From positions 96,001 to 160,000 of the forward strand of contig VMGC01000002.1 of NCBI GenBank assembly GCA_007376385.1: a DNA stretch of 64,000 bases. Direction: 5' to 3'. This document shows, one piece after another, positions 2,972 to 32,702 of the stretch. Positions within the stretch are counted from its first letter, which is position 1. Every line of letters begins with the position of its first letter. This DNA comes from Parcubacteria group bacterium Gr01-1014_8 (GTDB lineage Bacteria > Patescibacteriota > Minisyncoccia > Phycocordibacterales > UBA2100). The position numbers and the translations under genes are program-made. A model generated the notes under the pieces. That model was not told the origin of the DNA. It was given only the letters and a program-made list of their open reading frames with translations, and did not search any database.

Positions 2972-3838
2972 CTATGCCAAGGGAACAGCATCAGAGATGT
3001 CTTTCTGATCTGGAAATTCCAGCCGTAGTCGTTCGATATCTTCTGTGTCCATTTCCCACTCAATAGCTCCAAGATTTTCTTTTAGATGATCAATATTTGA
3101 AGACTTCGCCAACGTTACGACGTTCTTCTGAGAAATCAGCCAATTAATGGCGATTTGGGCGGGAGTCTTTTTATATTTATCGCACATTTCAATTAAGACT
3201 TGCGGTGCATCAGCTAGAAGCGCGCCCTTTTCAAGAGGTCGCCATGCCGCAAGAAAAACATCATTCTTTTGACAGTAGTCTAGAAGTCCCTCTCGTTCTG
3301 GCTCACGAAATTCGAGGTTGTAATGGACTTGGTTGTATACGATCGGATTTGTGGCGCAACGTCGGGATTCTTCGAGAGCGGCTGTGTTGAAATTTGAAAC
3401 ACCCAGGTTCCTAATAAGTTCCCGGTTTTTCAGCTCATCCATCGCTGCCATTGTTTCTGACAGTAGAACATTGGGGACGTGCCGGTGCAAAATGTATAGG
3501 TCAAAATAATCTGTTCCGACTCTTGCAAGACTCGCTGTGCAGGCGTTGATGAGCGCATCGTGCTCCATGTGATCTGCAAAGACTTTTGAGGCTATGAATA
3601 ATTTCGAGCGATCGTATCCGCGTATCGCTTTGCCTACAAGTTCTTCAGCGTGGCCGGAGGCATATACTTCGGCTGTGTCGATGTGGGTAACTCCCATATC
3701 TATCGCAGCGCGGATGGCGGCGATGTCCGTGGCGTCATTGGTGGTATTGCGGTCATGTCTGCCTCCCATTTGCCATGTGCCTATGCCGAAAACAGGCATA
3801 GAAAAGCCGTTGATCAATGTTTTCTGTGGAATTTCCAT
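2972..3838 (-). CDS. aldo/keto reductase family oxidoreductase
   Basis: [13 protein letters not shown]...[19 protein letters not shown]...LYILH motifs of the AKR superfamily. Confidence 0.85.
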
Positions 3839-7539: not shown

Positions 7540-7646
7540 TATACCCCATGAGATAGTATCGACAATATTATTTCTGAGTCGATATATATTTTGGCCATGC
7601 TGTTATTTCGGTGGAAAGATGGAAAGTGTTTATCTCACGGGGTAGA
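7540..7646. promoter_or_regulatory. inverted pair of 16-nt motif (TATACCCCATGAGATA at 7540-7555; TATCTCACGGGGTAGA at 7631-7646) between divergent miaA and DCC genes
   Basis: Exact or near-exact copies of the motif recur at 3 other intergenic sites; each copy faces the adjacent gene. Confidence 0.6.
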
Positions 7647-10836: not shown

Positions 10837-13002
10837 TTACTTCGCGAGTTTGTGCGGGTTATGCATTAGACATGATTTGTTACTGCAGCGTTCTGGGATA
10901 GTCTTAGTTCCTTGCATCATCAGTGATCCGCACTCGGGGCAAAGTTTTCCTGTCGGCCTGGCTTTAATCGCGTTTTTGCAATCAGGATAATTCGAGCATG
11001 AAAAGAAAGGCCCGAATTTTCCGCGGCGCTCCACCATTTCTCCTTTTTTGCACACAGGACACGCCACGCCCGTCTTACTCTTTGCCTCTTCGATCGGATC
11101 TTTTCTCACGAATTTGCATTTCGGATAATTACTGCATGCGATGAATCGTCCGAAGCGGCCTTCACGCTCCATCAGTTTTCCGTCTTTACATTCAGGGCAA
11201 GTTTCGCCGATATCTTTTGGCGGCGCAATTTCGCCTCCATCTTCTTTGCGCGCTCCCAGGCATTTGGGGAATTTCGCGCAACTCATAAAGCGCCCAGTGC
11301 GAGACAGTTTGTATACCATTAAGCCGCCGCATATCGGGCAGGGGAATTCAGCAGGTGCGGGACCCATATTTGTTAATTTCTCAATTTTGTCTTTTGCTTT
11401 TACTGCTTTTTTGAACGGAGAGTAGAAATCTTTTAGTGTTTTTTCATACTCTCGCTTTCCATCTGCGATCTCGTCGAGTTCATTTTCCATTTCGGCGGTA
11501 AATGTATCGCTGATGTATTCGGTAAAGTGCTCTTCAATGAACGAGCTTACCACGTCGCCGGTATGGGTTGGAACAAGTGTGCGGCCTTGTTTCTCGACGT
11601 ATCCGCGATTCTCCAGCGTCGAGATAATTGACGCATAGGTCGAAGGCCGTCCGATACCACGTTTTTCCAGTTCTTTCACCAATCCGGCTTCGCTATATCT
11701 CGGAGGTGGTTGTGTTTCTTTTTCCTCTGTGTTTGCTTTTACGAGCTTCAATGCATCGCTTTTTGCTACCTTTGGAAGTTGTACCTCTTCTCCGCGTGCC
11801 TCGGGGTCAGCCTTGAGCCATCCTTCAAAGAGTACGCGCGAACCGTTTGCAGCAAAATGCGGGACGGTGTCGCCTTCAACATTTGCAGTTATTTTTGTGC
11901 GAAGGACTTTTGCGTCTGTCATCTGGCTCGCCAAGGTGCGTGCGCGGATGAGCTGGTACAGCTTTTTTTGGTCGTCGGTCGTTCCAGCGGACGCCTTGTG
12001 CATATTCGTCGGCCGAACTGCTTCGTGGGCCTCTTGAGCAGATTTGCTTTTTGACTTGTATGCCCGCACTTCTACGTACTCTTTGCCAAAATCGCTTTCA
12101 ACAACATGTGCGATCTGCTCCACCGCCTCCTTTGCAAGACTCGGAGAATCCGTACGCATGTAGGTGATGTGTCCGACTTCATACAGTTTCTGTGCTGTTC
12201 GCATCGTTCGAGATGGCGAGAAGCCAAGCCGCGTCGAAGCGACCTGCTGCAGGGTTGATGTCGTGAACGGCGCGCGCGGAACTCTTTTTTGTTCCGATTC
12301 TTCGATGTCCACGACATGCCACGCCTTTGTGTGCGCCTCATCAAAAATTCGTTTCGCCTCCTTCTCGTCGCGCGGTTCTTCGCTGCAAATAACGGTAAAC
12401 GGTTCATCCTTCATTGTTTTGACCTCTGCGCTAAGCACCCAGAATTTTTCCGGAATAAATGCGCGTACTTCGCGCTCCCGCTCCATGAGTATGCGCAGCG
12501 CAGGGGATTGGACGCGACCAGCTGAGAGGCCGTAACGCACTTTTTTCCACACTAATCCCGAGAGGTCGTATCCAAACAATCTGTCGAGTACGCGTCTTGC
12601 TTCTTGCGCTTTGCGCAGGTTCTGGTCGATGAGTCGCGGATGAGCGAGTGCTTCTTGAACAGCATGTTCGGTTATCTCGTTGAATACGATGCGTTTTGGT
12701 TTTTTGAGTCCGATGGTCTCTGCCAAGTGCCATGCGATGGCCTCTCCTTCTCGGTCGGGGTCGGTCGCAAGGATGACCTCATCGGCACGGCCTGCGATCT
12801 CGTGCAAACCGTCAATCACGTGCTGCTTCTCTTTTACTATCTGGTAGCGCGGAATAAAACCGCCCTCGATATCAACGGCGTCCTTGTTGCTTTTCGGCAG
12901 ATCGCGGATATGCCCGACCGACGCGCGGACGGTGAATCCTTTTCCCAGATATTTTTCAATTGTCTTGGCTTTCGCCGGAGACTCAACAATTACCAATTTC
13001 AT
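10837..13002 (-). CDS. topA: DNA topoisomerase I
   Basis: MKLVIVESPAKAKTIEKYLG...TOPRIM; C-terminal repeated C4 zinc-ribbon motifs (CPxCG..C..C). Confidence 0.95.
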   Translation of the reverse strand: MKLVIVESPAKAKTIEKYLGKGFTVRASVGHIRDLPKSNKDAVDIEGGFIPRYQIVKEKQHVIDGLHEIAGRADEVILATDPDREGEAIAWHLAETIGLKKPKRIVFNEITEHAVQEALAHPRLIDQNLRKAQEARRVLDRLFGYDLSGLVWKKVRYGLSAGRVQSPALRILMEREREVRAFIPEKFWVLSAEVKTMKDEPFTVICSEEPRDEKEAKRIFDEAHTKAWHVVDIEESEQKRVPRAPFTTSTLQQVASTRLGFSPSRTMRTAQKLYEVGHITYMRTDSPSLAKEAVEQIAHVVESDFGKEYVEVRAYKSKSKSAQEAHEAVRPTNMHKASAGTTDDQKKLYQLIRARTLASQMTDAKVLRTKITANVEGDTVPHFAANGSRVLFEGWLKADPEARGEEVQLPKVAKSDALKLVKANTEEKETQPPPRYSEAGLVKELEKRGIGRPSTYASIISTLENRGYVEKQGRTLVPTHTGDVVSSFIEEHFTEYISDTFTAEMENELDEIADGKREYEKTLKDFYSPFKKAVKAKDKIEKLTNMGPAPAEFPCPICGGLMVYKLSRTGRFMSCAKFPKCLGARKEDGGEIAPPKDIGETCPECKDGKLMEREGRFGRFIACSNYPKCKFVRKDPIEEAKSKTGVACPVCKKGEMVERRGKFGPFFSCSNYPDCKNAIKARPTGKLCPECGSLMMQGTKTIPERCSNKSCLMHNPHKLAK

Positions 13003-13181
13003 ATCAATTTATTTTCTGAAGCGCCTTTGCCGGCCTGTCCCGTTAGACACGAAGCTGTCTAACCGAGACGATCCTACTATTACAAGCTTCATACGAGCAC
13101 GATTGATATCCTAGAAGCCTAACACGTGTCAAGCGGATGTAATAAAAATGTTATTGACTCTCAGTGATATTTATATGAGTC

Positions 13182-13334
13182 TGGACGCAAGCAAGGGGAA
13201 GGAGGTGCGCAGTGTACAGGATCTTCTTGCTGGTTCGGTTGCTCTCCTTTTCGGGGGAAGTTACTTCAACGTGGGAGATCGATCTTCCGCCGAACGCTGA
13301 GTTTCCGCTCTGCATGCCTCCATGCAGCGCGTCC
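13182..13334 (+). ncRNA. candidate structured RNA in the dprA-topA intergenic region (strand and identity uncertain)
   Basis: Closing helix GGACGC...GCGTCC enclosing about 140 nt with several internal hairpins (GGGAGATCGATCTTCC, CTGCATGCCTCCATGCAG). Weak TTGACT/TATAT promoter-like elements upstream. Confidence 0.25.
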
Positions 13335-14194
13335 TAAATCGCACGAACCAATCCAAGCGTTTCCTGAATTAACCCTTTTATCTCCATCGTTGAAAGCAGA
13401 ATATTTGCTTCAGAAATAGACATTTCTAACTGAGATAGTAGTTCGTCGCGTGAGCAGGGCGAGGATAGTATTTCCAGCACTTTGCGCTCATCTGAAGACA
13501 AATCTTCTCGCAATGACGGACTTACGATGTCGGTCATTTCGATGCCGAGCGCTTTCAAGATGTCCTCGGGTTCCGTTACTGGCGTTGCGCCGAGTTTTAA
13601 AAATTGATGCGTTCCGCGGCTTTCGGCGCTGAAGATAGAGCCCGGAACGACTAACAACTCCCGATTATATTCGGTCGTAAGCCGCGCGGTGATAAGGGAG
13701 CCAGAACGCTCTTTTGCCTCGATGACCAGAGTCGCCAGGCATAATCCGGCCATGATGCGATTCCGCTGTGGAAATGTGTGATCGGCGGCTTTTTGCTTCG
13801 GCTCAAATTCTGACAACAAAGCTCCGCCCGCTTTTAAGATTTCTCGAGCCAGCCCAACATGCGCTCTAGGATAGATGACGTCCCAATCGAGACCAGACCC
13901 AGGGACTGCAACAGTGGGGAGTCCGGCGGAAAGGGCCGCTTTGTGAGCACATGCGTCTATGCCATAGGCGAGCCCCGACACGATGACGATCGGGTAGCCG
14001 CGGAGACCCCCTATTAGATGTTCGCACGCCTGTCGTCCGTAGGAACTTGCGGCGCGAGAGCCGACCACTGCGAGCCATACGTCGTCGTAACGGGGAAGCT
14101 CTCCCCGGACATACAATTGTTTCGGCGGGTCCGATATTTCGGCTAATAGAGGGTGGAAATGAGCTGCTTTGAGTTGGCGTAACGTGTCACTCAT
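13334..14194 (-). CDS. dprA: DNA-processing protein DprA/Smf (short form)
   Basis: LAVVGSRAASSYGRQ...IVSGLAYGIDACAHKAAL Rossmann-like DprA core; start set at MSDTLRQ. Confidence 0.85.
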   Translation of the reverse strand: MSDTLRQLKAAHFHPLLAEISDPPKQLYVRGELPRYDDVWLAVVGSRAASSYGRQACEHLIGGLRGYPIVIVSGLAYGIDACAHKAALSAGLPTVAVPGSGLDWDVIYPRAHVGLAREILKAGGALLSEFEPKQKAADHTFPQRNRIMAGLCLATLVIEAKERSGSLITARLTTEYNRELLVVPGSIFSAESRGTHQFLKLGATPVTEPEDILKALGIEMTDIVSPSLREDLSSDERKVLEILSSPCSRDELLSQLEMSISEANILLSTMEIKGLIQETLGLVRAI

Positions 14195-14208
14195 TGTACT
14201 ATCTATTG

Positions 14209-14276
14209 TATACCCCGTGAGATAAACAGGTCTGACCTTCAACAGGAAAGCGGATGTGCATATCTCATGGGGTATG
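14209..14276. promoter_or_regulatory. inverted pair of 16-nt motif (TATACCCCGTGAGATA 14209-14224; TATCTCATGGGGTATG 14261-14276) between divergent dprA and serS
   Basis: Same motif as at 7.5, 18.2 and 32.6 kb. Confidence 0.6.
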
Positions 14277-14306
14277 CCGTTATTTCCGGCGCTTCCCTTT
14301 AGACCT

Positions 14307-15578
14307 ATGCTTGACATCAAATTCATCCGAGAAAACAAAGATATTGTTGCGGCAGGCGCGCGGAAGAAGCATATAGATGTCGATATAGACAGACTTCTTC
14401 AGCTTGACGATAAACGCAGAGAGCTTCAACAGGCGCTGGAAGCTAAGAGGGCCGAGCAGAACAATGCATCAAATGCGATAGCAGGCGCAAAAAATGATAG
14501 AGAGCGGCAGGAGCTTATTGCTCGAATGCAGCAAGTCAAAGAGACGATGAAAATGGAAGAAACATCACTTGAGGAAATATTAAAAGAATGGCGAGCCTTG
14601 ATGGTGCGGGTTCCGAACGTTCCGGATATCTCAGTCCCTGATGGTGACAGCGATGCGGATAATAAGGAAGTAAAGAAGTGGGGAGAGGCAGCTGAATTTG
14701 AGTTTGAGCTGAAAAATCATTCCGAATTGATGTTGATGCATGACATGGCCGATCTTGAGCGAGGCGCAAAAGTTGCAGGCTTCAGGGGATATTTCTTGAA
14801 AAACGATGGGGCACGATTGGTGTGGGCCTTAGAAAGATTCGTACAAGATAGATTCATGAACCGCGAGGGGTTTGTTCCTGTCGTTGTTCCTTCCATGGTT
14901 CGTCGAGAGCCTTTTATCGGCACCGGATATTTGCCCCAGAGCGAAGAGGATCTGTATAAAACGCAAGATGGTGACTATCTTGCGGGTACCGCGGAAGTTG
15001 CCGCTATGGGATATTACATGGACGAAATAGTTGATAAAAGATTGCTGCCGATAAAATTCTTTGCATTCTCTCCGTGTTTTCGCCGTGAAGCGGGGAGTCA
15101 CGGCAAAGACACGAAAGGACTCTTTCGGATCCATGAGTTCGTGAAATACGAGCAGGTAGTCTTATGCGAGGCGAATCATGAAGAATCCGTGCGTCACCAC
15201 GAGGAGTTAACGGCGAATTCGGAAGCTCTCCTGCAGGAATTGAAATTGCCGTATCGCGTTGTGCTGAACTGCGGGGGGGACATAGGTCTCGGGCAAGTAA
15301 AAAAGTACGACATCGAAGCATGGATGCCGTCGGAGAAAAAATATCGCGAGACGCATTCATCATCGTATTTTCATGATTTCCAATCTCGGCGATTGAATAT
15401 TCGTTATCGAGATGATGACGGGACGCTTAAATTCGTCCATTCTTTGAATAACACAGCGCTCGCGATGCCGCGCATCCTCTGCCAAATAGTCGAGAACAAC
15501 CAACACTCTGACGGTTCAATATCAATTCCGGAGGTGCTCCGGGGCTACGTGGGAAAAGATGTGATATCCAAGCACTAA
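14307..15578 (+). CDS. serS: seryl-tRNA synthetase
   Basis: MLDIKFIRENKDIV N-terminus and class II aaRS core; start moved to MLDIKF. Confidence 0.95.
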   Translation: MLDIKFIRENKDIVAAGARKKHIDVDIDRLLQLDDKRRELQQALEAKRAEQNNASNAIAGAKNDRERQELIARMQQVKETMKMEETSLEEILKEWRALMVRVPNVPDISVPDGDSDADNKEVKKWGEAAEFEFELKNHSELMLMHDMADLERGAKVAGFRGYFLKNDGARLVWALERFVQDRFMNREGFVPVVVPSMVRREPFIGTGYLPQSEEDLYKTQDGDYLAGTAEVAAMGYYMDEIVDKRLLPIKFFAFSPCFRREAGSHGKDTKGLFRIHEFVKYEQVVLCEANHEESVRHHEELTANSEALLQELKLPYRVVLNCGGDIGLGQVKKYDIEAWMPSEKKYRETHSSSYFHDFQSRRLNIRYRDDDGTLKFVHSLNNTALAMPRILCQIVENNQHSDGSISIPEVLRGYVGKDVISKH

Positions 15579-18230: not shown

Positions 18231-18333
18231 TATACCCCGTGAGATATAAACCTGTATGTCGCACTCTCGGCGCTCAATTTTGAGAAGATGTGACGCTATA
18301 GGCGGATAGAGCCGGACTATCTCATGGGGTATA
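18231..18333. promoter_or_regulatory. inverted pair of 16-nt motif (TATACCCCGTGAGATA 18231-18246; TATCTCATGGGGTATA 18318-18333) upstream of dnaX
   Basis: The right copy faces dnaX. The left copy faces leftward toward a 10-bp hairpin (18165-18188) with no annotated gene. Confidence 0.6.
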
Positions 18334-18341
18334 CTCCTTCC

Positions 18342-19424
18342 ATGACTGCAAAAACCGAGACGAAACACACGACTCTCTACCGCGCGTACAGGCCGCGGAC
18401 TTTTGGGGAAACGCACGGGCAGGAGCATATCGTAAAAGTCTTAGAGGCGGAAATAAAACAGAAAAAACCTGCGCATGCGTATTTATTCGTCGGAAGCAGA
18501 GGGACGGGGAAGACAACATTTGCACGCATTCTTGCGCGAGAGCTTGGAGTAACAGATAAGGATTTGTACGAGATGGATGCCGCATCGCATACCGGGGTAG
18601 AAAACATCCGAGAACTTCGCGAAGGCGCAAACGTAATGCCCTTCGAATCGCCGTATAAGTTCTATATTATTGACGAAGCACACATGCTCTCGAAGGGCGC
18701 ATGGAATGCGTTTTTAAAAACGCTTGAAGAGCCGCCTCCTCACGTCATTTTCGTTCTTGCGACGACAGACCGGGACAAAGTCCCTGACACAATTCAATCG
18801 CGTTGCGAGATATATTCCTTCAAACAGCCGACCCGCGAAGTATTAGCCCAGGTCGTTTCAGATGTGGCGAAGAAAGAAGGGTACTCGCTCGAATCATCAG
18901 CATCTGAATTAGTGGCGCTTCTCGCAGAAGGTTCGTTTCGAGATGCGCTCTCGATATTGCAGAAAGTGTTGGCAGTCTCGAAAGACCCCAGTGAGACAGG
19001 AAAATTGTCTCACGGGGCAGGTAAGAAAGTTACAGTGGCGGAGGTTGAGGAGGTCTCAGGAGCTCCGCGAGGCGAACTCGTGCGCCGTCTCTTGAAGGGA
19101 TTGTCGGAGAAGAATGCAAAAGATTCGCTTTCGGCCATACAAGAAGCTGTTGATGAGAATCTGGACGCTCGCACGCTTGCAAAATTGTTGATACATCGAA
19201 TGCGCGTAGTGCTGCTACTTCGCTATGCACCTGATCTGGCGGGATCTTTTTCCAAAGAACTTACCGACGCTGATCTCGCGCTTGCTAAGGAAATCTCAAA
19301 AAATCCAGGCGTGACCTCTGAAACATTGCGAATGCTTCTTGAGGCGTACGGAGCAATGGCATACGCAGCGGTCCAACACTTACCACTTGAGCTCTCAGTC
19401 ATTGATATATGCGGCCGCGAATAA
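18342..19424 (+). CDS. dnaX: DNA polymerase III subunit gamma/tau (short form)
   Basis: YRAYRPRTFGETHGQEH...GSRGTGKTT...DEAHML; 361 aa from MTAKTE. Confidence 0.8.
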   Translation: MTAKTETKHTTLYRAYRPRTFGETHGQEHIVKVLEAEIKQKKPAHAYLFVGSRGTGKTTFARILARELGVTDKDLYEMDAASHTGVENIRELREGANVMPFESPYKFYIIDEAHMLSKGAWNAFLKTLEEPPPHVIFVLATTDRDKVPDTIQSRCEIYSFKQPTREVLAQVVSDVAKKEGYSLESSASELVALLAEGSFRDALSILQKVLAVSKDPSETGKLSHGAGKKVTVAEVEEVSGAPRGELVRRLLKGLSEKNAKDSLSAIQEAVDENLDARTLAKLLIHRMRVVLLLRYAPDLAGSFSKELTDADLALAKEISKNPGVTSETLRMLLEAYGAMAYAAVQHLPLELSVIDICGRE

Positions 19425-31162: not shown

Positions 31163-31286
31163 TTATGCCTGTACACACGAAAAGGCCTTATATGCATGCG
31201 GTCAGCCGTTCAAGAATGAACACAACTGATCCAGAGACTTGGTTGCTTTTTGGAAGTAATGTTGGCCAGCGGCTAGGCCTTTTCGT

Positions 31287-31580
31287 GTGATAGGTATGCA
31301 AGAAAGAATAGAGGCGATCGAGCGGGAGCTGGAAGCAATAAAACAAAGAAATTCTCGGGTGGAAGGGGATAAAGCATGGGAAACAAGCCCTGTGCGCGCG
31401 GCTATTCTCGCAGCCATTACGTTTGTAGTGACTTCCGCCGGCCTCATGATGATCGACAATGAGAATCCGTTTCGCAACGGGATCATAGCGGCGATCGGAT
31501 ATGTACTTTCAACGCTATCATTTTCATTCCTGAAGCGACGCTGGATCGTCTCGTACGTCGCGCGACTCGGCAAGAAGTGA
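31287..31580 (+). CDS. small membrane protein with N-terminal coiled coil
   Basis: 97 aa; competing antisense ORF 31202..31609 judged less likely. Confidence 0.35.
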   Translation: MIGMQERIEAIERELEAIKQRNSRVEGDKAWETSPVRAAILAAITFVVTSAGLMMIDNENPFRNGIIAAIGYVLSTLSFSFLKRRWIVSYVARLGKK

Positions 31581-31712
31581 ACCCCGTTAGAGAACGCCCT
31601 GCCGAACACGGCTTCAGTCGTCTTAGGGGTGGCTTTTCTCTAACGGGTGAATAACTCGCTGTACAGAGCTTCCAGCATGGTATTCTTTGCAGATTAACAT
31701 CATCTCTTTCGT

Positions 31713-32596: not shown

Positions 32597-32702
32597 TATA
32601 CCCCATGAGATAAAGCATTTATCGTATCTCTCCAAATAATTTCCAGGCTAAAAGTCTATTAATCGGCTGAAATTGTAGATTTTTTTTATCTCACGGGGTA
32701 TA
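32597..32702. promoter_or_regulatory. inverted pair of 16-nt motif (TATACCCCATGAGATA 32597-32612; TATCTCACGGGGTATA 32687-32702)
   Basis: The left copy faces the GFA gene; the right copy faces the 32777 gene. Confidence 0.6.

Follow-up and report, generated by a model that had tools for sequence, protein, structure and literature searches.

The genes dprA and topA are neighbours on the minus strand of a 64,000-nucleotide (nt) stretch of contig VMGC01000002.1 from Parcubacteria group bacterium Gr01-1014_8, hereafter the window. With the ATG end of topA at 13002 and the end of dprA at 13334, the spacer between them (13003-13333) is 331 nt long. We find that this spacer is probably a mosaic of three unrelated things, namely a piece with a small open reading frame (ORF), the topA promoter and a topA leader made by a cassette, and not one RNA element. 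Its leader very probably has the architecture described below, in which a relic of the ancestral topA start, an insert, a linker and a new start follow one another. This would be a case of an essential gene whose start has been displaced by a tiny hairpin insert with a substitute start, in three Kaiserbacteria lineages.

The spacer was compared with 80 related loci (L001-L080) and later with closer relatives (L162-L170), which are the contigs encoding the nearest TopA proteins. The comparison set holds ~170 loci and 1.1 Mb in all, and WIN denotes the locus of the window itself. Most of the 80 loci have dprA directly upstream of topA. The gap between the two genes in relatives spans -10 to 1909 nt, often with unrelated inserted genes, and is most commonly 40-90 nt. 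An initial annotation of the window had described a long intergenic region of 330 nt; the length is right to within one nucleotide, and "unusually long" holds for the lineage as well.

The topA leader

The features of the leader and of the gene that it precedes are as follows.

10837-13002, minus strand: topA, 721 amino acids (aa), with Pfam Toprim, Topoisom_bac and Zn ribbons
13102-13132, minus strand: topA promoter motif, comprising TTGACA (13132-13127), TG (13124-13123), TAGGCT (13121-13116) and ATATCAAT (13109-13102)
13009-13092, minus strand: upstream ORF (uORF) of 27 codons and TAA, with the displaced ancestral topA start at its head, predicted product MKLVIVGSSRLDSFVSNGTGRQRRFRK, stop 6 nt before the topA ATG
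13034-13068, minus strand: insert of 35 nt that splits the relic between codons 8 and 9
13063-13042, minus strand: perfect 8-bp hairpin GTTAGACA-GCTTCG-TGTCTAAC within the 35-nt insert, from a repeat search
13003-13021, minus strand: A-rich linker without a Shine-Dalgarno sequence (SD), CTTCAGAAAATAAATTGAT, directly before the topA ATG, with A-rich counterparts in L022 and L164
13001-13008, minus strand: AUUGAUAU, covering the first two bases of the topA AUG and perfectly complementary to AUAUCAAU at 13109-13102

In a blastn comparison of the spacer with the 80 loci, only 13135-13069 of the window was matched, and it aligns with the ~43 nt upstream of topA in relatives together with the first 24 nt of topA itself. 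After the promoter, the window reads ATGAAGCTTGTAATAGTAGGATCG (ATG at 13092), the 35-nt hairpin insert, CCGGCAAAGGCG, a 19-nt A-rich stretch and then the topA ATG at 13002. Relic codons 1-8 (13092-13069) and 9-12 (13033-13022) agree at 34 of 36 nt with the real topA start in L162, the closest relative, and the first 36 nt of the real topA of the window differ from that start at 12 of 36. Because the upstream copy is nearly identical to the L162 start and the real start is divergent, the upstream copy is the displaced native start. The first 24 nt of topA, ATGAAATTGGTAATTGTTGAGTCT, differ from the relic at six of seven synonymous positions and, judged by their sequence, came with the cassette.

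We propose that a cassette of 88-90 nt entered the ancestral topA behind codon 8 and that this would have created the leader of ~107 nt (13109-13003). The cassette would consist of a hairpin related to a family of inverted repeats (treated below), an A-rich linker and codons 1-8 with a new ATG. The ancestral ATG at 13092 keeps its normal distance from the promoter, and the first ATG stands at the ancestral promoter distance in all seven insertion-bearing loci tabulated. The fold of the leader has z = -2.56. Its 8-bp hairpin had been noted before, and it exists, but at 13042-13063 and not at 13061-13082, a shift of 19 nt. The suggestion that the spacer holds the 5' leader of topA likewise survives in part: it applies to the topA-proximal ~107 nt including this hairpin, but not to the ~150-nt element for which it was made, since the conserved topA promoter lies downstream of that element.

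That promoter has the form TTGAC(A/G)YRTGNTA(G/C)NNT...GTATCAMT in ~50 of the 80 related loci, and in ~30 of the loci an ATG follows 37-45 nt after TTGAC without an SD. The motif is single-copy within the window, where the sequence GTGtTAGGCT at 13125-13116 has the extended -10 form TGnTAnnnT that is common among promoters of this genome. From this we infer a transcription start at ~13109, which would leave a leader of ~17 nt before the first start codon (AUG1, at 13092). An alternative pairing, TTGACA-N17/18-TATCAA, would make AUG1 essentially 5'-terminal. With either pairing, AUG1 would be the promoter-proximal start, and the topA start (AUG2) an internal start without an SD ~107 nt into the mRNA. 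The stretch from TTGACA to the -10 hexamer (13116-13132) is conserved in the window and its relatives, with CAYRTG throughout and a ACACGTGT palindrome in the window. Its conservation exceeds what a promoter spacer needs, and either an operator or some sensitivity to supercoiling may lie behind it.

Where control of topA is known, it is exerted chiefly at promoters that respond to supercoiling and are unusually spaced. One such promoter, topAp1 of Streptomyces coelicolor, has a 13-nt spacer between -35 and -10 and start sites 78-144 nt ahead of the start codon (PMC5055605). The promoter of the window is similar in being topA-specific and of odd geometry, with TTGACA 5 nt from a TG-extended -10, and in preceding a long leader, whereas in most Kaiserbacteria the leader is only ~15 nt. 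That the Kaiserbacteria motif is analogous to the supercoiling-sensitive topA promoters is speculation on our part.

Only three of the ~170 loci, WIN, L022 and L164, have the duplicated start with its order of relic, hairpin, CA(A/G)GCC, A-rich linker and new ATG. AUG1 and AUG2 are 90, 88 and 89 nt apart, respectively. In each case the closest TopA relative is free of the cassette (L162 for WIN, 92.5% aa identity; L026 for L022, 96.9%; L165 for L164, 93.8%), and L022 and L026 differ by a clean 88-nt indel. The three hairpins (fold z = -2.6, -1.5 and -2.2) share a conserved CCCCGG...CCGGGG-like base and have entirely different upper stems. Among the carriers 20 of the 24 relic nt are invariant, more than in the rest of the cassette. 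Relic and new start differ at 5-6 of 7 synonymous sites, which rules out a recent tandem duplication as the origin of the cassette.

The patchy distribution may reflect repeated loss or lateral spread by recombination. On the latter side, one could picture the cassette as a spreading module. By transposition, or else by transformation with recombination, it would enter the 5' end of topA, an essential gene, and turn the native start into a uORF that gates topA translation by way of the hairpin and of a helix pairing the mRNA 5' end with AUG2. Because the cassette supplies a replacement start, topA would not be inactivated by the insertion. We regard such a spreading module as unlikely, but if true it would add a layer of post-transcriptional control over topoisomerase I in a genome that seems largely leaderless. 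The replacement of gene ends by integrating elements is familiar from prophage e14 in E. coli icd and from elements in tRNA genes. As in those systems, the inserted DNA brings its own gene end, the gene stays intact, and the displaced end remains as a synonymously diverged partial repeat. Unlike them, the topA cassette replaces a 5' end, has ~65 nt between the repeats and carries no integrase. A recombinase-bearing element between the repeated gene ends is absent from all carriers, each having ~65 nt between relic and new start, and no larger element was found at the topA insertion site in any locus examined.

The uORF raises the possibility of translational coupling. Ribosomes would load at AUG1 and translate the uORF through the hairpin, melting it; the same passage would open a helix between the mRNA 5' end and AUG2 and so unmask AUG2. 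Having terminated 6 nt ahead of it, the ribosomes would re-initiate on topA. That this coupling is functionally important is conceivable, though we do not hold it to be probable. In the window, TAA 6 nt before the topA ATG gives the geometry of coupled frames, with a stop near a start and a downstream start that lacks an SD. Relative to the real ATG the uORF ends at -6 in the window, -17 in L164 and +20 in L022, and in L034 the two overlap as ATGA. The chance of the uORF being open in the carriers is ~0.02. For the 8-bp pairing of the mRNA 5' end with AUG2, 9 of 5000 dinucleotide shuffles reached at least 8 bp (p ~0.002), and the pairing also appears in the minus-strand fold of the whole spacer.

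Several points weigh against coupling. The pairing of the 5' end with AUG2 was noticed post hoc; L164 has a 7-bp partial analogue, seen by eye, and L022 has none. With only three cassette loci, both the apparent covariation of the hairpin and the openness of the uORF are weak statistics, and the topA transcription start is itself inferred from a motif. Among the carriers the uORF stop has no fixed distance to AUG2. In L001, L012, L028 and L040 the uORF ends 43-92 nt before the real start, which speaks against any general need for coupling.

Alternatively, the relic start, the hairpin and the linker could be a neutral scar, in which uORF and hairpin regulate nothing and topA is translated directly from its own AUG by way of the unstructured A-rich linker, a reading that has some weight with us without being one we expect to be right. 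Relatives tolerate very different inserts at this place with uORF stops far from the real start, L040 uses an in-frame ATG inside its insert, and cassette-free sisters exist for all three carriers. Against it, the relic is more invariant than the rest of the cassette, the hairpin has been kept while its stem sequence changed completely, the first ATG stands at the ancestral promoter distance in seven insertion-bearing loci, and AUG2 is a start without an SD that is able to pair with the mRNA 5' end.

Coupled uORFs and leader peptides elsewhere resemble this arrangement in that the upstream frame ends 6 nt before a sequesterable start without an SD, and the ATGA overlap of L034 is classic coupling geometry. 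They differ in that the uORF of the window is the displaced N-terminus of the same gene, that the geometry is not uniform among relatives, and that the uORF of the window bears no sign of a metabolite- or antibiotic-sensing peptide. If the uORF does gate topA, it would offer a testable example of internal-start translation in an organism that is mostly leaderless and poor in SDs, and a possible control point for supercoiling homeostasis.

Two other ways of crossing an insert were considered and set aside. Programmed translational bypass, as in T4 gene 60, was rejected because no stop directly follows a take-off codon and the cassette itself supplies an ATG and codons 1-8. Removal of the L040 insert by RNA splicing was rejected because an in-frame ATG in that insert gives an N-terminal extension of 27 aa.

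Two further inserts are of a different kind. In L034 (~100 nt upstream of topA at 3001) a palindrome-closed insert carries a 34-codon uORF whose TGA overlaps the topA ATG. The insert of L040 (2917-2998) has no second ATG, and TopA would start inside it with 27 additional residues; a similar extension, '...RPISNG-MKLVIVES', is seen in protein P0024.

The proposed folded RNA and a small plus-strand frame

The remainder of the spacer had been singled out as a structured RNA of ~150 nt (13182-13334), closed by a terminal helix around several local hairpins and perhaps transcribed on its own from the plus strand. A repeat search recovered all of the inverted repeats named.

13183-13188 and 13329-13334 (span 13183-13334), plus strand: GGACGC/GCGTCC closing helix, not conserved and not counted as functional
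13199-13204 and 13244-13249: AAGGAG/CTCCTT
13273-13288: GGGAGATCG/CGATCTTCC, a palindrome centred on GATCGATC
13306-13331: CTGCATG...CATGCAG hairpin of 11 bp with one mismatch and a 4-nt loop, lying where the ends of dprA and the small ORF converge

The last base of the GCGTCC arm falls inside the dprA stop codon. Because GGGAGATCG/CGATCTTCC is a palindrome, its hairpin loop must come from its own centre. AAGGAG/CTCCTT is present as a repeat, but the pairing is missing from the minimum-energy fold.

The 153-nt element folds on the plus strand with a minimum free energy (MFE) of -60.8 kcal/mol (z = -1.83). With 9 of 200 shuffles folding as well, this does not stand clearly apart from chance; the MFE fold contains the closing helix. 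The opposite strand has the same z of -1.83, with 9-10 of 200 shuffles as good across the strands. An equal z on both strands is expected of a GC-richer patch and is no evidence of selection for structure. Folding of the whole spacer gave z = -0.17 on the minus strand and -1.69 on the plus strand. An Rfam scan for 6S, SRP or any other family returned no match in 12900-13450 even at E<=10, and the whole window at gathering threshold returned three tRNAs only. A consensus promoter and terminator scan of 12700-13700 found no sites, and the element has neither blastn or tblastx similarity in the 80 related loci nor a repeat inside the window. In L162, whose TopA is the closest (91%), the spacer is 54 nt and consists of the dprA stop, ~12 nt, the promoter and the ATG; the element is therefore dispensable, recently gained or lost.

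Two loci, L163 and L169, have sequence homologous to the element. RNAalifold of the window with these two gave -4.5 kcal/mol with a positive covariation term (+1.34), and the closing helix has no equivalent in either. Both keep instead an SD, a start codon and a frame. Thus the central claim of a helix-closed RNA is not supported: Rfam is empty, stability is marginal, the fold is not conserved and L162 lacks it. An independent structured small RNA on the plus strand, closed by GGACGC/GCGTCC, would draw on the existence of the repeats, the closing helix in the MFE fold with its z of -1.83 and a TTGACT box upstream; set against a z that base composition alone would yield, the absence from the closest relative and the features that the two homologous loci do keep, we consider it very improbable. 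The RNA candidate can be retired, which spares follow-up effort.

One of its hairpins could have a separate role. The hairpin at 13306-13331 forms in every fold and places an 11-bp GC-rich stem directly after the dprA stop, as might suit a bidirectional terminator without a U-tract for the converging dprA and small-ORF transcripts. There is, however, no U-tract on either strand, the terminator scan was negative, and relatives have 10-20 nt, and no such hairpin, from the end of dprA to the topA promoter. We think this role rather unlikely.

What the segment does contain is a short frame on the plus strand.

13212-13337, plus strand: small ORF of 41 codons with GTG start and TAA stop, from the ORF list and its translation, predicted product MYRIFLLVRLLSFSGEVTSTWEIDLPPNAEFPLCMPPCSAS
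13199-13205, plus strand: SD, AAGGAGG, 6 nt ahead of the GTG and one arm of the AAGGAG/CTCCTT hairpin
13154-13171, plus strand: candidate promoter TTGACT...TATTTA, weak, of non-canonical spacing and hexamer, proposed from sequence

This small ORF converges on dprA, overlaps its stop codon and covers most of the 150-nt element. It has the spacing of a small coding gene, with AAGGAGG, a 6-nt gap and GTG at 13212 followed by 41 codons. The ~200-nt segment from the dprA stop to the topA promoter (13136-13337) occurs in few lineages only; on the TopA tree the window shares a single subclade with L163 and L169, whose TopA proteins are 84-87% identical to that of the window. L163 (TopA 87%) has a called opposite-strand gene of 67 aa at the same place, and in L169 (TopA 84%) a similar frame begins but runs off the contig end. 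Around the SD, GGAAGGAGGTG is identical in all three, with the start codon 4-6 nt later in each. Likewise, GAGGAAGGAGGTG, the start codon and a hydrophobic N-terminus stand at the same place on the plus strand in the three loci (window, MYRIFLLVRLLSFSGEV; L163, MFKLVLLLWVVGPFGEV; L169, MITLVLLVVVMHLAEGDV). With the L163 ORF as a tblastn query against the 170 loci and the window (1.1 Mb), the best non-self match was 13194-13313 of the window (E = 0.16); E is much smaller if the search space is the syntenic spacer only.

Because AAGGAGG, the start and the hydrophobic N-terminus are common to three loci, the AAGGAG arm of the proposed hairpin is a conserved SD. The 150-nt element is, on its sequence, best read as a small, fast-evolving, SD-led ORF of 41 codons on the plus strand or the remnant of one, and its predicted product is a short protein whose hydrophobic N-terminus resembles a signal peptide. 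The hairpins would then be incidental pairings within its coding sequence and ribosome-binding site. The idea of an independent plus-strand transcript may have picked the correct strand, but what the loci conserve is what marks a small coding gene. Of the weak promoter elements named for it, TTGACT is indeed present at 13154-13159, but the promoter scan found none. L169 has TTGACT-N16-TATTCT at the matching place, and a stem AGCAA/UUGCU around the SD is weakly conserved in the window, L163 and L169.

The public record has at this place, at 13148-13300 on the plus strand, a hypothetical protein of 50 aa, G01um10148_503, which lacks an SD. Among 5.8 billion proteins this frame finds only itself. 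We rejected it as the real frame because the L163 homology falls in the 41-aa frame, and the public call is probably a mis-called frame. The reading of the small ORF given here would therefore correct a public gene call.

A number of observations speak against the small ORF as an intact gene. Its homology consists of three short sequences of 26-33% identity with E = 0.16, and hydrophobic N-termini resemble one another easily. For the 41-aa frame, a word-sharing search of the 5.8 billion proteins gave no homologue, and HMMER against 1.84 billion representatives gave only two matches, both long tandem-repeat proteins that score via many repeats and were treated as artefacts. The consensus scan offered no convincing promoter for it. 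A strong SD is atypical for this genome, in which only 4 of the 62 long ORFs of the window have any SD-like motif (GGAG, GAGG or AGGA) upstream. The copy in the window is shorter than that of L163 (41 versus 67 aa) and may be a decaying remnant. Taken together, a tiny and poorly conserved family, a weak promoter and a shortened copy make decay a live alternative.

In its strongest form, this alternative holds that the segment 13136-13337 is non-functional, the remnant of a decaying accessory gene or filler in a spacer that freely gains and loses DNA. The wide range of gap lengths in relatives (-10 to 1909 nt) with their unrelated inserted genes, the absence from L162, the truncation relative to L163, and the lack of both a promoter and a wider protein family are in keeping with it. 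Against it, the SD, its spacing to the start and the hydrophobic N-terminus have been kept in three lineages whose TopA is only 84-87% identical to that of the window, and the frame is still open over 41 codons. We judge a wholly non-functional segment to be on the unlikely side, though it deserves attention.

Far less credible is a type I toxin whose folded mRNA, with closing helix and buried SD, acts as a translational lock as in hok/sok. The peptide is small and hydrophobic, it is preceded by a strong SD in a genome poor in SDs, and both the closing helix and the AGCAA/UUGCU stem might serve as the lock. Yet the hydrophobic run is ~10-13 residues and broken by Arg, of signal-peptide and not transmembrane length, so that the peptide lacks the full transmembrane helix of such toxins. 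Nor is the closing helix conserved, and neither a candidate antisense promoter nor a Pfam match is present.

The small ORF of the window has several traits in common with unannotated, SD-led intergenic ORFs for short secreted or membrane peptides: its frame is short, its start follows the AAGGAGG-N6 pattern, its N-terminus is hydrophobic, its distribution is patchy, it diverges fast, and gene finders mis-call it. It differs from them in standing in a genome whose genes seem mostly leaderless and without SDs and in overlapping the stop of the converging dprA.

Across L001-L080 and L162-L170 the dprA-topA spacer is a hot spot for gene insertion. ORFs found in it include a PIN-domain protein (L166) and an Exo_endo_phos protein (L167), and small hydrophobic opposite-strand ORFs stand behind an SD in the spacers of L011, L016, L169 and L170.

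Inverted-repeat elements and start signals

The ends of the 35-nt insert in the topA leader resemble the terminal repeats CCCCGTTAGA/TCTAACGGGG of a family of small inverted-repeat elements, with 9 of 10 and 8 of 10 matches; the leader hairpin has the ends TCCCGTTAGA and CTCGGTTAGA, which share the family terminus CCCCGTTAGA. The family takes the forms CCCCGTTAG...CTAACGGGG and CCCGGTAG...CTAACCGGG. It has 11 matches in the 1.1 Mb, with interiors of 44-143 nt and, in most, flanking direct repeats of 4 bp. The flanking repeats of other copies are TATG, TTGA and TGAA, whereas the flanks of the leader hairpin, TCGT and ACAG, differ from each other and give no target-site duplication. Because the leader copy lacks a flanking repeat, its membership of the family is, as far as its sequence goes, only probable.

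The window holds one intact member elsewhere.

31582-31647, plus strand: intact family member CCCCGTTAGAG...CTCTAACGGG, 66 nt, with TGAA on both sides

Its termini match elements at the topA promoter and start of relatives. It lies at the 5' edge of a minus-strand ORF (31204-31639) and upstream of a plus-strand gene. At the TTGA of the topA promoter, members are inserted in L012 (1911-1986) and L168 (2336-2435), at an identical site and with TTGA duplicated. The two loci are far apart on the TopA tree. Elements of the form CCCGGTAG...CTA(A)CCGGG, 131-143 nt long with TATG on both sides, occur in L001 (2869-2999), L012 (2033-2168) and L009 (5442-5584). The TATG flanking repeat means that the start codon is regenerated. 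Those of L001 and L012 lie between the old and the new topA ATG, and that of L009 is at the start of another gene. L034 and L028 have other palindrome-closed inserts at the same spot. In this clade, therefore, small palindromic inserts have landed repeatedly at the 5' end of topA.

Miniature inverted-repeat and palindromic elements of the Correia, ERIC and RUP type sit in the 5' regions of genes and are co-transcribed with them. The family described here is like them in its shared termini, variable interiors, 4-bp repeats and landing in promoters and leaders. It is unlike them in its low copy number (in the 1.1 Mb), and the leader copy differs in being a minimal hairpin of 30 nt without a flanking repeat. 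A literature search found no description of the family in Patescibacteria, so that small inverted-repeat elements clustering at the topA promoter and start are apparently undescribed there. Two other identities were considered. An integron attC was rejected because the GTTAGAC/GTCTAAC cores are in the wrong order, and a cruciform supercoiling sensor was set aside, related inserts having loops of 70-120 nt.

A hairpin closely resembling that of the topA leader, 31 nt of CCCAGTGAGACA-GGAAAAT-TGTCTCACGGGG followed by CAGG, lies in frame at 18987-19017 in a dnaX-like gene (...DPSETGKLSHGAGK...) and may be an in-frame insertion.

In addition to the rarity of SD-like motifs, the 62 long ORFs of the window show a TAnnnT hexamer whose distance to the ATG peaks at 6-7 nt (11 of them have it at exactly 6 nt) and which often stands behind TGn. 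This suggests that the genes of the window are mostly expressed as leaderless mRNAs from extended -10 promoters. Our search of the literature on leaderless translation or miniature inverted-repeat transposable elements in the Candidate Phyla Radiation found nothing directly relevant.

Inverted pairs CCCCRTGAGATA...TATCTCAYGGGG lie between divergent genes at 7544-7642, 14213-14272, 18235-18329 and 32601-32698, one of them between dprA and serS, and next to each arm stands a TAnnnT hexamer that precedes an ATG by 6-7 nt. The arms look like a conserved upstream promoter element, ATCTCAYGGGG-TAnnnT. The motif of the leader hairpin resembles these divergent-promoter palindromes, yet is probably distinct from them.

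Flanking genes and source

Upstream of the spacer lies dprA.

13334-14338, minus strand: dprA as the longest ORF (334 aa), stop TAG at 13336-13334, Pfam DNA_processg_A 1.7e-65

Its true start is likely Met49 at 14194, giving 286 aa: DprA alignments of relatives begin at about residue 46 of the longest ORF, and the call on the source contig is also 286 aa.

The best TopA matches are in Candidatus Kaiserbacteria and other Parcubacteria metagenome-assembled genomes (MAGs). A protein identical to this TopA is encoded by ENA contig ERZ27284378:k139_40110 as well as by the NCBI MAG "Parcubacteria group bacterium Gr01-1014_8". A metagenome scan with the TopA N-terminus returned, among the matches listed, only relatives of <=69% identity.

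As longest ORFs, dprA and serS overlap head to head (14194-14338 and 14256-14307). Relatives and the source contig calls indicate shorter genes, dprA of 286 aa from ~14194 and serS of 423 aa from ~14307, which would leave a divergent promoter region of ~110 nt between them.

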